This document shows, in pieces, positions 6,801-11,917 of a DNA stretch of 64,000 nucleotides; position 1 is the first letter of the stretch; each line of letters opens with the position of its first letter. Location of the stretch: the NCBI GenBank assembly GCA_965217115.1, contig OZ244239.1, positions 928,001 through 992,000 on the forward strand, written 5' to 3'. Under the pieces are notes generated by a model that worked only from the letters and a program-made list of their open reading frames with translations, was not told where the DNA came from and made no database searches. The translations under genes and the position numbers were made by a program. Origin of the DNA: Bdellovibrionales bacterium (lineage in GTDB: Bacteria > Bdellovibrionota > Bdellovibrionia > Bdellovibrionales > CAYMLA01).

Positions 6801-6857
6801 GTGATTATCTTATAATGATTTGATCAAAGAAACATCGTTTTTTTTCACATCTCTCTC

Positions 6858-8018
6858 TTATCGCACTATTCCTTGCTCCCCATGACTCCCTCCACCGTCA
6901 CCCTGTGAATCTTTTTTTGGATGCTTCTTAGCAATCGCCTGTTGCACCTTTTCCTCACAAGTTTGATTATAATCGCCCATTATTTTAGCTGATTTCTTAG
7001 ACTGGAAGTTCTGCAAAGCTCCCTCGCAACAATCAGCAATGAGTGTTGTGAGCCCTTCTTTAAAAAGGGGTTTGAAATTCTTCTCTGCCAATGCTTTTAC
7101 ATTAAATTCAACGTGATAGGTGAATGGGCTTTTCCCTAAATCTTTAAAAAAGGCTCCTGAGAAATCACTCTCTTGAACAAACCTAGGGTGTTCTTTGTCG
7201 GTTTTAGCAAATAAACCCTTTTCGTCCAGTTCCCTAAGACCATCCCCTGCAAATACAAGGATTTTATCACCACTTGATATATTTTTTATTCTTGGAAAAC
7301 TAAAATCTCCATCTTTGATCCCTAAGGTGTACTTCTTGCCCCCTACTGTTATATCAGAAAATGATCGACCCTTCTTATCCCTGCGACAGGTAAATTCTGT
7401 TGGATTTAAAGACTCCAACAACCTTTCATCCGCGGAATCAACATTCTTGTATATAGTCATGCCTACCCAAGTTATACCAGCAATGACTCCATTAATGGCA
7501 ATTGAAATTGGCAACATATTAGCAGTTGTGATAACAATACCAACAGCATGGGCTTTAGGCGCTATTAATGATAAGAACACAGACGGTGATTTACTTGGTT
7601 TTTGATAGAGTTTATTTATCGCTGTGTAAAGGGAGCGAAAACTCCTATGGGAGGTCGCATTTAACTCTTTGCCATTAATAAGGAACTTTCCCTCAATGGC
7701 TTTTTGAAAACCGACGTTGACCTTCTCGCCACCCACCCTCATCACCAGATCATTGCCACTCACGGAGAGTTTTATCTTTTGGGATTTAGGTGTTTGCTCT
7801 ATCAGATCTTGGATGAACTTCCTGTCGTCTTTCAACTTCAATATCTTCTTTAAACCAACGAACATCTCCCGCGCATGGACGCCATGGATCTGTTCATAGG
7901 CTCGACCCATTAACTCTTGATTCACATCACTCAAAGGAGTCCCAAACACGACGGGTGAAAAAAGCAAGCCCACCATAGATGTAAAAAAAACTGACATCAG
8001 TAAAACCATTCTCTTCAT
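6858..8018 (-). CDS. Exported paralog-array protein, copy D (unknown function)
   Basis: ORF 6858..8054; GGAAGG SD favours ATG at 8018 (MKRMVLL). Signal peptide, internal PKAHA motif, hydrophobic segment, C/CC/C. Confidence 0.9.
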   Translation of the reverse strand: MKRMVLLMSVFFTSMVGLLFSPVVFGTPLSDVNQELMGRAYEQIHGVHAREMFVGLKKILKLKDDRKFIQDLIEQTPKSQKIKLSVSGNDLVMRVGGEKVNVGFQKAIEGKFLINGKELNATSHRSFRSLYTAINKLYQKPSKSPSVFLSLIAPKAHAVGIVITTANMLPISIAINGVIAGITWVGMTIYKNVDSADERLLESLNPTEFTCRRDKKGRSFSDITVGGKKYTLGIKDGDFSFPRIKNISSGDKILVFAGDGLRELDEKGLFAKTDKEHPRFVQESDFSGAFFKDLGKSPFTYHVEFNVKALAEKNFKPLFKEGLTTLIADCCEGALQNFQSKKSAKIMGDYNQTCEEKVQQAIAKKHPKKDSQGDGGGSHGEQGIVR

Positions 8019-8063
8019 CAGAAACCTTCCATTCAAATTCAATGGGTTTTTCATGTGCTGCTC

Positions 8064-9236
8064 TTATTTCACTGTTGTTCTATTATTAGTCGTTCCATCA
8101 TCACCTGATGAATCTTTTTTTGGATGCTTTTTAGCAATCGCCTGTTGCACCTTTTCCTCACAAGTTCGACTCCTAGCGCCCATCGTTCCATATGATCTCT
8201 TATTAAATTGGAAGTTCTCCAAAGCTCCATCGCAACAATCAGCAATGGCTGTGAGCCCTACTCTTAAAAAAGGCTTGAAATTTTTCTCTGCCAATTTTTT
8301 TAACCCACGTTTATCACCTTGATAAAAGCGGCTGCTTTTATAGTCTCTAAAAACAGCTTTTGAGAAATCACTCGCCTGAACAGATTTAGGGTATGGCTCG
8401 GTTCTAATAACTGAACCCCTTCTGTACCGTCCCCTAAAACCATCATTTGCAAATATAATCTCTCTTTTATGCCCATCAGCCTTACCAACTGATATGCTTT
8501 TTATTCTTGGACGATTAAACGCTCCATCTCTGATCTTTAAGGTGTACTTCTTGCCCCCTACTGTTATATCAGAAAATGACTGATCATCCTTATCCCTGCG
8601 ACAACTAAATTCCGTTGGATCTAAAGATTGCAGCAGCCTTTCATCCATAGGAGTGCCTCCAAGATTCGTATCTGACCCTAGAAAATCTATACCATTAAGA
8701 ATTGAGGGTATAAGAATTACAGGAGTCATTGCAGCAATAGCAGAAGTAGCTATCAAACCAAGAGCATAGGCTTTAGGCGCTATTAACGATAAAAACACAG
8801 ACGGTGATTTACTTGGCTTTTGATAGAGTTTATTTATCGCCGTGTAAAGAGACCGAAAACTCCTATGGGAGGTCACATTTAACTCTTTGCCATTAATAAG
8901 GAACTTTCCCTCGATGGCTTTTTGAAAGCCAACGTTGATCTTCTCTCCCCCCACACTCATCACCAGATCATTGCCACTCACGGAGAGTTTTATCTTTTGG
9001 GATTTAGGTGTTTGCTCTATCAGCTCTTGGATGAATTTCCTGTCGTCTTTCAACTTCAATATCTTCTTTAAACCAACGAACATCTCCCGCGCATGGACGC
9101 CATGGATCTGTTCATAGGCTCGACCCATTAACTCTTGATTCACATCACTCAAAGGAGTCCCAAACACGACTGGTGAAAAAAGCAAACTCACCATAGATGT
9201 AAAAAAAACTGACATCAGTAAAACCATTCTCTTCAT
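8064..9236 (-). CDS. Exported paralog-array protein, copy C
   Basis: ORF 8064..9260; start placed at MKRMVLL by homology with the other copies. Motif reads PKAYA. Confidence 0.9.
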   Translation of the reverse strand: MKRMVLLMSVFFTSMVSLLFSPVVFGTPLSDVNQELMGRAYEQIHGVHAREMFVGLKKILKLKDDRKFIQELIEQTPKSQKIKLSVSGNDLVMSVGGEKINVGFQKAIEGKFLINGKELNVTSHRSFRSLYTAINKLYQKPSKSPSVFLSLIAPKAYALGLIATSAIAAMTPVILIPSILNGIDFLGSDTNLGGTPMDERLLQSLDPTEFSCRRDKDDQSFSDITVGGKKYTLKIRDGAFNRPRIKSISVGKADGHKREIIFANDGFRGRYRRGSVIRTEPYPKSVQASDFSKAVFRDYKSSRFYQGDKRGLKKLAEKNFKPFLRVGLTAIADCCDGALENFQFNKRSYGTMGARSRTCEEKVQQAIAKKHPKKDSSGDDGTTNNRTTVK

Positions 9237-9280
9237 CACAGACCTTCCTTTCAAATTCAATGATTTTTCATGTGCTGCTC

Positions 9281-10462
9281 TTAGTGCACTGCCGGAGTAT
9301 CCCTAAAACGCACTCCACCGTTATCTTGTGAATCTTTTTTTGGATGCTTTTTAGCAATCGCCTGTTGCAGCTTTTCCTCACAAGTTCGACTCCTAGCGCC
9401 CATCGTTCCATATGATCTCTTATTAGATTGGAAGTTCTCCAAAGCTCCCTCGCAACAATCAGCAATGGCTGTGAGCCCTACTTTTAAAAAAGGCTTGAAA
9501 TTTTTCTCTGCCAATTTTTTTAACCCACGTTTATCACCTTGATAAAAGCGGCTGCTTTTATAGTCTCTAAAAACAGCTTTTGAGAAATCACTCTCCTGAA
9601 CAGGTTCAGGGCGGTATGGCTCGGTTCTAATAAAAAGTAAACCATTTCTGTACCGTCCCCTAAAACCATCATTTGCAAATATAATCTCTTTTTTATGCCC
9701 ATCAGCCTTACCAATTGATATACTTTTTATTCTTGGGCGATTAAACGCTCCATCTCTGATCTTTAAGGTGTACTTCTTGCCACCCACTGTTATATCAGAA
9801 AATGGTTGATCATCCTTATCCCTGCGACAACTAAATTCCGTTGGATCTAAAGATTGCAACAGCCTTTCATCCATAGGAGTGCTTCCAAGATTCGTATCTG
9901 CCCTTAGAAAATCCAGAACAGTCCAAATTGTGGGAGCAACAATTGCACCAAGCATTGCACCAATACCAACACTAGCTATCAAACCAACAGCATGGGCTTT
10001 AGGCGCTATTAATGATAAAAACACAGACGGTGATTTACTTGGTTTTTGATAGAGTTTGTTTATCGCCGTGTAAAGGGACCGGAAACTCCTATGGGAGGTC
10101 GCATTTAACTCTTTGCCATTAATAAGGAACTTTCCCTCAATGGCTTTTTGAAACCCGACGTTGATCTTCTCGCCACCCACCCTCATCACCAGATCATTGC
10201 CACTCACGGAGAGTTTTATCTTATGGGATTTAGGTGTTTGCTCTATCAGCCCTTGGATGAATTTCCTGTCGTCTTTCAACTTCAATATCTTCTTTAAACC
10301 AACGAACATCTCCCGCGCATGGACGCCATGGATCTGTTCATAGGCTCGACCCATTAACTCTTGATTCACATCACTCAAAGGAGTCCCAAATACGACTGGT
10401 GAAAAAAGCAAGCCCACCATAGATGTAAAAAAAACTGACATCAGTAAAACCATTCTCTTCAT
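9281..10462 (-). CDS. Exported paralog-array protein, copy B
   Basis: ORF 9281..10486; same architecture as the other copies. Confidence 0.9.
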   Translation of the reverse strand: MKRMVLLMSVFFTSMVGLLFSPVVFGTPLSDVNQELMGRAYEQIHGVHAREMFVGLKKILKLKDDRKFIQGLIEQTPKSHKIKLSVSGNDLVMRVGGEKINVGFQKAIEGKFLINGKELNATSHRSFRSLYTAINKLYQKPSKSPSVFLSLIAPKAHAVGLIASVGIGAMLGAIVAPTIWTVLDFLRADTNLGSTPMDERLLQSLDPTEFSCRRDKDDQPFSDITVGGKKYTLKIRDGAFNRPRIKSISIGKADGHKKEIIFANDGFRGRYRNGLLFIRTEPYRPEPVQESDFSKAVFRDYKSSRFYQGDKRGLKKLAEKNFKPFLKVGLTAIADCCEGALENFQSNKRSYGTMGARSRTCEEKLQQAIAKKHPKKDSQDNGGVRFRDTPAVH

Positions 10463-10557
10463 CATAGACCTTCCTTTCAAATTCAATGATTTTTCATGTG
10501 CTGTTCTTAACCAATACTCTTTAAGCAGAGAAATGCTAAATTTTAAACACCTCTCTC

Positions 10558-11727
10558 TTATCGCACTATCTGACTATCCTTACCAGACACTCCACCGTCA
10601 CTCTGTGAATCTTTTTTTGGATGCTTTTTAGCAATTGCCTGTTGCACCTTTTCCTCACAATTTCGCTTATCAGCGCCCATCGTTCCATATGAGATCTTAG
10701 CCTGGAATTTCTGCAAAGCTCCCTCGCAACAATCAGCAATGGCTGTGAGCCCTGCTTTTAAAAAAAGTTTGAAATTCTTCTCTGCCAATGGTCTTACCGT
10801 GTCTGAATCTTTTTCGTAAAAGCGCCTGCTTTTATGGTCTCTAAAAACAGCTTTTGAGAAATCACTCGCTTGAACAGACCCAGGGGTTCCTGTGTCCTCT
10901 CTAAAAATGGTACCATTTTTGTACAGTCCCCTAAAACCATCATTTGCAAATGTCATCGTTTTTTTATCCCCATCATCCTTACCAACTGATATACTTTTTA
11001 TTCTTGGAAAACTAAACGCTCCATCTCTGATCTCTAAGGTGTACTTCTTGCCCCCTACTGTTATATCAGAAAATGATTGCCCCTTCTTCCTGCGACAACC
11101 AAAGTCCGTTGGATTTAAAGACTGCAACAAGCTTTCATCCGCACCAATAGCTCCAAAACCAATACCCATCTTTGTAGATATAAAGTCATTAGAAAACGCA
11201 ACAGCGGTAGCAACTCCTGCTGCTGCTGCTGCTGCTACACCCAACATAACACCAGCATGGGCCTTAGGCACTATTAATGATAAAAACACAGACGGTGATT
11301 TACTTGGTTTTTGATAGAGTTTGTCTATCGCCGTGTAAAGGGACCGGAAACTCCTATGGGAGGTCGCATTTAACTCTTTGCCATTAATAAGGAACTTTCC
11401 CTCAATGGCTTTTTGAAACCCGACGTTGATCTTCTCGCCACCCACCCTCATCACCAGATCATTGCCACTCACGGAGAGTTTTATCTTATGGGATTTAGGT
11501 GTTTGCTCTATCAGCCCTTGGATGAATTTCCTGTCGTCTTTCAACTTCAATATCTTCTTTAAACCAACGAACATCTCCCGCGCATGGACGCCATGGATCT
11601 GTTCATAGGCTCGACCCATTAACTCTTGATTCACATCACTCAAAGGAGTCCCAAACACGACTGGTGAAAAAAGCAAGCTCACCATAGATGTAAAAAAAAC
11701 TGACATCAGTAAAACCATTCTCTTCAT
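10558..11727 (-). CDS. Exported paralog-array protein, copy A (promoter-proximal)
   Basis: ORF 10558..11730; same architecture; (GCA)6 poly-Ala in the variable hydrophobic segment. Confidence 0.9.
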   Translation of the reverse strand: MKRMVLLMSVFFTSMVSLLFSPVVFGTPLSDVNQELMGRAYEQIHGVHAREMFVGLKKILKLKDDRKFIQGLIEQTPKSHKIKLSVSGNDLVMRVGGEKINVGFQKAIEGKFLINGKELNATSHRSFRSLYTAIDKLYQKPSKSPSVFLSLIVPKAHAGVMLGVAAAAAAGVATAVAFSNDFISTKMGIGFGAIGADESLLQSLNPTDFGCRRKKGQSFSDITVGGKKYTLEIRDGAFSFPRIKSISVGKDDGDKKTMTFANDGFRGLYKNGTIFREDTGTPGSVQASDFSKAVFRDHKSRRFYEKDSDTVRPLAEKNFKLFLKAGLTAIADCCEGALQKFQAKISYGTMGADKRNCEEKVQQAIAKKHPKKDSQSDGGVSGKDSQIVR

Positions 11728-11917
11728 CACAGACCTTCCTTTACAAGAACTCTTTAAAATTCACCACTGACATAGTGTATAACACTCCAATCCCGGGTCC
11801 TAGTTCCATTCCTCATTTCCATTTTAATTCTTGGCTTAAGACTGGAAGTGAACTAGACCTTTGTGTTATGTAAATTTCTTAAGATCTCTTGCAAAAAAAA
11901 CCCGAAATCGCCCGATC

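Follow-up and report, generated by a model that had tools for sequence, protein, structure and literature searches.

What could a bacterium of the Bdellovibrio phylum gain from four exported proteins whose genes stand in tandem, agree almost completely in one half, and differ widely in the other? The genes lie at positions 6858-11730 of a 64,000-nucleotide stretch (the window) of contig OZ244239.1 from a Bdellovibrionales bacterium. A preliminary description, made from the letters of the window, had taken them for a diversifying secreted family and a candidate undescribed system. We found that the array is genuine and arose by recent tandem expansion of an exported protein family that is undescribed. 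Its variable segments change as fast as synonymous sites or faster and have been exchanged between copies, and we tentatively read the products as a set of recognition proteins with different ligands.

The proposed tandem array of four co-oriented genes for exported proteins was borne out by the list of open reading frames (ORFs), by alignment of the copies, and by signal peptides recognized from sequence. All four genes are intact and lie on the minus strand. The ORFs as listed span 6858-8054, 8064-9260, 9281-10486, and 10558-11730 and encode 398, 398, 401, and 390 amino acids (aa) (copies A, B, C, and D, respectively). In all four copies, a GGAAGG ribosome-binding site stands just upstream of a common MKRMVLL and precedes (A/G)TGATGAAG, which is common to each repeat. 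We therefore placed the likely starts at 8018, 9236, 10462, and 11727, which gives products of 386, 390, 393, and 389 aa. The size of ~390 aa given earlier was thus of the right order (386-393 codons from the likely start), but that length included upstream codons that are probably untranslated. The spacers from a stop to the next ORF measure 9, 20, and 71 nucleotides (nt) within the array and 57 nt from the array to the next gene; between copies, the 3' end, spacer, and 5' end recur as one unit. The G+C content of the array (0.40-0.42) is similar to that of its flanks (0.37-0.40) and so gives no sign of foreign DNA. The array is laid out as follows.

10558..11727, minus strand: copy D, first transcribed, 389 aa from MKRMVLL (listed ORF to 11730)
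9281..10462, minus strand: copy C, 393 aa from MKRMVLL (listed ORF to 10486)
8064..9236, minus strand: copy B, 390 aa from MKRMVLL (listed ORF to 9260)
6858..8018, minus strand: copy A, last transcribed, 386 aa from MKRMVLL (listed ORF to 8054)
11254..11727, minus strand: copy D signal peptide (aa 1-26) and N domain ending PKAHA (aa 27-158)
9989..10462, minus strand: copy C signal peptide and N domain (aa 1-158), the well-modeled part being aa ~40-140
8763..9236, minus strand: copy B signal peptide and N domain (aa 1-158)
7545..8018, minus strand: copy A signal peptide and N domain (aa 1-158)
11140..11253, minus strand: copy D hypervariable Gly/Ala-rich hydrophobic segment (aa 159-196)
9872..9988, minus strand: copy C hypervariable hydrophobic segment (aa 159-197)
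8646..8762, minus strand: copy B hypervariable hydrophobic segment (aa 159-197)
7431..7544, minus strand: copy A hypervariable hydrophobic segment (aa 159-196)
10561..11139, minus strand: copy D Cys-bracketed C region (aa 197-389; Cys 211, 333, 334, 357)
10867-11043, 10777-10851, 10663-10719, 10561-10608, minus strand: copy D variable segments of the C region
9284..9871, minus strand: copy C C region (aa 198-393; Cys 212, 336, 337, 361)
9593-9772, 9503-9577, 9386-9445, 9284-9331, minus strand: copy C variable segments of the C region
8067..8645, minus strand: copy B C region (aa 198-390; Cys 212, 334, 335, 359)
8373-8546, 8283-8357, 8166-8225, 8067-8111, minus strand: copy B variable segments of the C region
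6861..7430, minus strand: copy A C region (aa 197-386; Cys 211, 330, 331, 354)
7170-7331, 7080-7154, 6963-7019, 6861-6908, minus strand: copy A variable segments of the C region
11731..11917, minus strand: 187-nt intergenic region upstream of copy D, the sole spacer of promoter-sized length

The genome that carries the array is a single contig of 2,170,531 bases with 99.43% completeness. Contigs from four sequencing runs contained the parts specific to A, B, C, and D without differences; these runs come from one sample of one study, possibly the genome's own sample, with some bins uncovered in some runs. None of these contigs spans two copies. For each of three proteins of a second assembly (P0004, P0006, and P0014), the record names one ENA contig of 5,119 bases, most likely one and the same for all three. 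We also observed, in three of the four runs, contigs in which the copy B part 8346-8610 carries 4-8 differences; the sample therefore contains a second variant of this segment.

Each product begins with a typical Sec signal peptide, as judged from its sequence (aa 1-26; MKR, a hydrophobic run, and VVFG/TP). We found no lipobox, as the peptide ends in SPVVFG/TPLSD and no Cys occurs before aa 211. The following N domain (aa 27-158) is an alpha/beta domain of ~130 aa, Cys-free in the array copies, that ends in S-x-F-L-S-L-I-A-P-K-A-H-A in copy C and in APKA(H/Y)A across copies. Residues 1-158 are 95-98% identical in pairwise comparison, in line with the near-identity reported for the first ~160 aa, and identity is 0.52-0.82 after the AxA that closes this domain. 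An AlphaFold2 model based on a 70-sequence alignment reached a predicted local distance difference test score (pLDDT) >90 at aa ~40-140 of copy C; it showed three helices, five short strands, and one helix, and the earlier picture of a simply beta-rich domain does not hold. The same program given only six close sequences returned a pLDDT of 33.7 and was unusable.

The P-x-A-x-A motif directly precedes a hydrophobic stretch rich in Gly, Ala, Ser, and Thr (aa 159-197 in copy C). This is the most divergent part of the protein, with 46-60% nt identity among copies and 80-86% for the pair B-C. Its 19-residue Kyte-Doolittle maxima are 1.76-2.11 in the four copies, a membrane-spanning range, its Gly/Ala/Ser/Thr fraction is 0.42-0.63, and its summed Hessa-type value is 0.78-3.06, that is, of marginal hydrophobicity on scale values that were not taken from a tool. 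The C region beyond it retains every conserved block that had been described (DExLLxSLxPTxFxCRR, FSDITVGGKKYTL, PRIKxIS, VQxSDFS, LAEKNFK, IADCCxGAL, and CEEKxQQAIAKKHPKKDS). Alignment also recovered the four invariant Cys (212, 336, 337, and 361 in copy C) and the about five variable segments noted earlier, although the most divergent one, the hydrophobic stretch, had gone unmentioned. In copy C, the variable segments are aa 159-197, V1 at 231-290, a middle segment at 296-320, V2 at 340-359, and a tail at 378-393. In the model, the conserved blocks of the C region are predicted to form strands (207-214, 220-226, 229-234, 247-251, and 257-261) and helices (311-328, 330-346, and 359-372), and the variable segments would fall on coil at pLDDT <50 (237-290, 293-308, 347-358, and 378-393). 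The pattern of identity supports a constant N half joined to a C half of framework and variable parts, as first proposed.

To what extent are these differences constrained? By pairwise Nei-Gojobori counts, the ratio of nonsynonymous to synonymous rates (dN/dS) was 0.10-0.41 in the N half (dS 0.02-0.15) and 0.88-1.45 in the C half (dS 0.09-0.29). In the hydrophobic segment, for which B-C is the only well alignable pair, dN/dS was about 4.5 (dN 0.31, dS 0.07). In sliding windows, the proportion of synonymous differences (pS) was zero over roughly the first 65 codons, which indicates recent gene conversion, and the ratio of the nonsynonymous proportion (pN) to pS peaked at 4-6 at alignment columns ~251-290 and ~356-370. 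When V1 and V2 were taken together and compared with their own pS, the three pairs that include copy A had a pN/pS of 2.6-3.3 (Fisher p 0.002-0.009, in windows picked post hoc) and the other three a pN/pS of 1.4-1.7, not significant; the rest of the C half gave 0.68-0.93. It is safe to say that change in the variable segments matches or exceeds the synonymous rate, with the framework and the N half constrained. The N halves are shown to be kept alike by purifying selection together with gene conversion.

Recombination is clear from copy C, which is closest to D in the N domain (99-100% nt identity, columns 61-150) and closest to B after the AxA (80-100% versus 56-92%, with a 100% stretch at columns 301-330). 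In the second assembly, P0006 and P0014 are B/C-like, yet D-like at columns 301-325 (0.76 and 0.88), and P0004 resembles D at 251-275 (0.92), B/C at 301-325, and C in its tail (0.84). These three proteins are mosaics of the window's variants, and segments have been exchanged between copies in both assemblies. A further protein of the second assembly, P0007 (89 aa), corresponds to the N-terminal end of a copy whose frame is lost after REMLVG, and P0006 begins just downstream at MKDDRKF; the two look like one copy broken by a frameshift of a single base, whether genuine or due to a sequencing error.

Next, we asked whether the proteins belong to anything known. At E up to 1, the four copies had no Pfam match except a chance one to S21 (E 0.21, below the cut-off), and none of 60 relatives gave a Pfam match above the cut-off. 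NCBIfam and PADLOC contained nothing meaningful for the array proteins, and the best PDB chain sequence against the 70-sequence profile (A5) had E 0.35, in agreement with the first impression that no known domain is present. Fold searches, including those against an OspA-like sheet, p32/Mam33, and the carboxylase BT domain, gave no match clearly above background with a C-half model that was poor, and the ESM Atlas gave no usable match for copy C or for the member from genome G039. A literature search found no paper on such a family, a weak result since an unnamed family is hard to find by words.

Relatives emerged stepwise as the profiles were broadened. A direct protein search gave six matches among 5.77 billion proteins, four of them the window's own, and the narrow profile A1 found none in 60 relatives (0/60). 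A narrow six-sequence profile, the one used with HMMER against all databases, had three matches among 1.84 billion representatives; one of them, P0008 (289 aa, E 2.8e-4), has the same plan as the array proteins. A homologue search with P0008 returned only P0008 itself, profile A2 yielded no confirmed loci in genome or metagenome contigs, P0008 yielded none in metagenome contigs, and tblastn against phage and plasmid collections found no match. A profile that included P0008 detected members in 21/383 other genomes of the order, the one that holds B. bacteriovorus; a 13-sequence profile detected the N domain in 95/383, and A5 in 124/400 genomes sampled from the phylum, the sensitive search being confined to the order and the phylum. 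The distribution is uneven between taxonomic families (10/10 in f2 and 16/20 in f16 versus 0/34 in f18 and 0/17 in f26). Matches mostly span the N domain up to the hydrophobic stretch, and many genomes have 2-5 matches among the five candidates scored per genome. The loci elsewhere are mostly scattered single genes in unrelated contexts. P0013, an NCBI-named hypothetical protein of Bdellovibrio bacteriovorus, is identical to the G039 member at 334/335 positions, and this match identifies the order as that of B. bacteriovorus.

Against A5, the array copies themselves score E 1e-62 to 2e-66 over the full profile length, and they have the features by which the family is recognized: a signal peptide, the N domain, P-x-A-x-A, and a Cys bracket in the C region. 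When the N domains were placed in a tree, P0004, P0006, and the window copies grouped tightly as a single clade with a long branch, which makes the array a local expansion of recent date. Within the window's taxonomic family, the one other genome (G001, 94% complete) gave no match to the protein family. Judged by these profile matches, the protein family is probably undescribed yet no orphan, with an N domain that is widespread in the phylum. The idea of an undescribed system therefore stands for the family, but not for anything special to this genome.

Family-wide statistics were taken over 70 sequences, or over 65 with the six close copies counted once. Only A156 and A158 of the P-x-A-x-A motif, C212, and C361 are conserved in at least 90% of the 70, and the N domain is Cys-free in 64/70. 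After the AxA, the Cys count is even in 60/65 non-redundant members, a parity that holds across clades even though related sequences are not independent; over all 70, there are four Cys in 31, six in 17, eight in 6, ten in 3, and two in 2. The first Cys is kept in 67/70 and the last in 68/70, 35-177 residues apart. Since the counts are even across clades, a disulfide-bonded, extracytoplasmic C region is indicated, which lends indirect support to the disulfide-locked scaffold suggested earlier; Cys4 metal sites are at odds with counts of 2, 6, and 10. After the AxA, the segment reaches a Kyte-Doolittle value of at least 1.6 over 19 residues in 33 of the 65 rows in which the motif was found and is clearly polar (<1.0) in nine members. 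Its summed Hessa-type value is <0 in 4, 0-2 in 9, and at least 2 in 52 of 65. On these scales, it appears to be a marginal hydrophobic element rich in small residues and no uniform membrane anchor. We also observed that the last three residues are [GSA]-[VTA]-[RK] after a polar Gly/Ser/Pro-rich tail (for example, window 9284-9292 and 6861-6869), with a final R or K in 39/65 members; this ending looks like a recognition tag.

What might such proteins do? We tentatively favor a repertoire of extracytoplasmic recognition proteins, in which the copies would have different external ligands, perhaps components of the prey envelope. That envelope would be the obvious candidate source of ligands in the Bdellovibrio phylum, a suggestion that we hold jointly with the repertoire and just as tentatively. 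The C region would be disulfide-bonded and lie outside the cytoplasm, as the even Cys counts throughout the family suggest. The variable segments may be surface loops on a conserved framework of strands and helices, the hydrophobic segment may anchor the protein to the membrane or insert into it, and the array would supply the cell with several specificities simultaneously. In paralogue groups of other genomes, too, the N domain is kept better than the C part.

Several points weigh against this proposal. The link to prey comes solely from the phylum's inclusion of B. bacteriovorus. We picked the Fisher windows once the sliding scan was known, and the six pairs share history and are not independent. 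Compared with the pS of the whole C half, the pN of V1 and V2 was 1.2-1.7 times as high in five pairs and 0.65 times in B-C, so that these rates show loss of constraint, with positive selection only suggested. The C half is modeled poorly (pLDDT 33-78). If the hydrophobic segment contained a stop-transfer helix, the C region would be cytoplasmic. Furthermore, among single-copy orthologues of g31, the order's largest genus and one that includes a member named B. bacteriovorus, the C part is the better conserved (0.55-0.71 versus 0.38-0.62 for the N domain), and hypervariability is therefore no property of the whole family. The contrast between paralogue groups and g31 points to a C region that is a constrained functional domain, variable where the gene is amplified.

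An unlikely alternative is that the copies are membrane-inserting effectors, in which the N domain is a pro-domain or carrier, cleavage at AxA exposes a hydrophobic N terminus that inserts into the prey membrane, and the variable C region gives specificity. The nearly invariant P-x-A-x-A directly before the hydrophobic stretch would suit such a device, as would the probable extracytoplasmic location of the C region and the Gly/Ala/Ser/Thr fraction of 0.42-0.63; marginal hydrophobicity, with the Hessa-type value at least 2 in 52/65, is expected of a segment that is exported first and inserted later. The Gly/Ala stretch resembles viral fusion peptides and glycine-zipper toxin segments. However, no immunity or partner gene stands beside any copy, no neighbor family recurs beyond 6/69 loci (all in f2), Pfam, NCBIfam, and PADLOC revealed no toxin domain, and nine members have a clearly polar segment after the AxA. 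Cleavage at AxA is itself pure conjecture, and the Hessa-type scale values did not come from a tool. A bolder version, which we consider less likely still, would define a new class of predator proteins present throughout the Bdellovibrio phylum: a Cys-free carrier would be cut at AxA, the exposed fusion-peptide-like segment would plant a hypervariable, disulfide-bracketed head in or on the prey envelope, and arrays would shuffle heads into a combinatorial prey repertoire.

The same export signal, even Cys counts, loop-restricted change, and exchange of segments that suit the recognition repertoire would also be seen if exposed envelope proteins changed their loops to escape phages, grazers, or competitors, with the array providing alternative or mixed surface forms. 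The frameshift-split copy in the second assembly (P0007 and P0006) is in keeping with this, as it implies that copies can be lost. We regard enemy-driven variation as quite improbable: no switch machinery was found (no invertible element, repeat tract, or silent cassettes), each of the four copies is intact and has a ribosome-binding site of its own, and there is neither a beta-barrel nor a lipobox for placement on the surface.

Two further accounts seem to us more improbable again, to an equal degree. In the first, the proteins are bitopic in the inner membrane, with a periplasmic N domain, a spanning hydrophobic stretch, and a cytoplasmic Cys-containing C region, for instance, a metal-binding one in signaling or regulation. 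The Kyte-Doolittle maxima (1.76-2.11 in the array and at least 1.6 in 33/65) and a Lys-rich C-terminal tail would allow this. The Cys counts, often not multiples of four (6 in 17, 10 in 3, and 2 in 2 of 70), speak against it, as do the nine members that lack a hydrophobic segment yet keep the N domain, the AxA motif, and the Cys bracket; a summed Hessa-type value <0 occurs in only 4/65, and rapid loop change in a cytoplasmic domain would be unusual. In the second, the copies are redundant duplicates whose C halves drift under relaxed constraint, without adaptive meaning. A dN/dS near 1 over the whole C half (0.88-1.45), values above 1 that come from post hoc windows, and the dispensability of the genes in the lineage of G001, which has no member, agree with drift. 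All four frames are nonetheless open, neither the conserved blocks nor the four Cys vary, the ratios are 0.68-0.93 in the C half beyond V1 and V2 and 0.10-0.41 in the N half, and the layout of blocks and variable parts with exchanged segments recurs in the second assembly.

Lastly, an assembly that wrongly laid strain variants of one gene in tandem, to which the lack of a run contig linking two copies and the variant contigs for part of copy B lend some color, has almost no chance of being right, given the one-contig genome, the copy-specific segments found without differences in the run contigs (possibly of the genome's own sample), the three second-assembly proteins on what is most likely one ENA contig, and the repetition of 3' end, spacer, and 5' end as a unit.

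The surroundings of the array in the window comprise gcvP-like and rsmI-like genes on the plus strand and, on the minus strand, purH, a TPR protein gene, the array, and a gene for a YhaM-like HD/OB protein. In two genomes from different taxonomic families (G001 and G006), purH, the TPR gene, and the YhaM-like gene occur in the same order, with a single gene for a ~230-aa lipoprotein between the last two (L010:722-1402 and L009:765-1463, respectively). The two lipoproteins are 31% identical to each other. The corresponding slot of the window, 6801-11917, is filled by the array, which therefore sits where another envelope gene sits in relatives. The slot lipoprotein has no match in the window's genome, and homology between it and the array proteins was rejected (hhalign probability 0.2% and 1.1%). 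We found no conserved neighbor or partner of the family: the top recurring neighbor, an exported Ser/Thr/Pro/Gln-rich protein (for example, L032:2973-4301, minus strand), is the only one in more than four loci and stands beside a member at the six f2 loci L032, L046, L049, L052, L062, and L066, and four wider contexts differ. Elsewhere, at L097:9498-14180 (in G243), two loci of the array's family flank six genes in tandem, of 219-261 aa; these six start with, or contain near the start, MSQPAIPTPDEIWSILREVS, continue in repetitive coiled-coil-like text, and have a similar gene in L091 (G244).

In the 187-nt region upstream of copy D, no promoter was identified, and a promoter and terminator scan was uninformative: its two promoter-like sites, both of which lie in the repeated 5' ends, compare with a chance expectation of 11.1. 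Plus-strand antisense ORFs of 89-140 aa within the array genes (7195-7605, 8053-8322, and 10892-11314) recur because the genes recur; nothing suggests that they are real genes.

The array is a compact natural experiment, with four copies that share an N half and carry reshuffled C parts. Should the C parts bind components of the envelope, it offers matched variants for mapping specificity; if the AxA and the hydrophobic segment form a device for processing and insertion, it would represent a new route of protein delivery to a membrane. Even with a mundane function, A5 defines a domain family that could be added to public libraries, one carried by about a third of the phylum's sampled genomes. 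A widespread family with a distinctive, testable layout is absent from the domain libraries searched.

How does the array compare with known systems? The variable surface multigene families of Borrelia, Mycoplasma, and Neisseria diversify by gene conversion, and they resemble the array in their tandem paralogues, conserved 5' parts, and segmental exchange. Diversity-generating retroelements also target variation to the C-terminal part of an exported protein. We rejected such a mechanism here: the sole RVT_1 domain of the genome lies ~930 kb away, no template repeat exists because the rest of the genome gives no DNA match to any part of the array, and the differences include insertions and deletions and are not adenine-specific. 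This RVT_1 match is at G000:C1:1868639-1869175 (L100), outside the window, in a 319-aa frame (E 9.8e-13). Plasmodium's Rifin, Stevor, and Pfmc-2TM proteins (PMC1751529) share a signal sequence, a conserved domain, a hydrophobic segment beside a hypervariable stretch, and many paralogues with the array; these 2TM families are eukaryotic and unrelated in sequence, and the analogy is one of layout only.

Polymorphic toxin systems (Zhang et al., 2012; PMC3482391) are alike in having a constant N part, a variable C part, recombination, and adjacent copies. Unlike them, the array has no immunity genes, no toxin or trafficking domain, and no truncated cassettes, and all its copies are full length with a signal peptide. 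The spacers of 9, 20, 71, and 57 nt hold no immunity gene after any array gene, and the only other ORFs are the antisense ones inside the genes. For orphan or silent cassettes, blastn found no match of the array elsewhere in the genome, and A5 found only the four copies at E up to 10. Internal spacers of 9-71 nt, with no toxin domain, silent cassettes, or other genomic copies, leave the polymorphic-toxin reading entertained earlier unsupported.

A parallel comes from B. bacteriovorus itself. Its mosaic adhesive trimer (MAT) fibre proteins are, according to Caulton et al. (2024; PMC10769870), a diversified exported family with variable ends and a range of binding capabilities. By that description, they are set apart as long fibre-like trimers with phage-like parts, whereas the array proteins are ~390 aa long, have no Pfam match, and are of unrelated layout. 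The same source portrays prey recognition and handling by Bdellovibrio-type predators as still poorly understood. The MAT proteins provide a precedent for a recognition repertoire in a predator of the same wider lineage.

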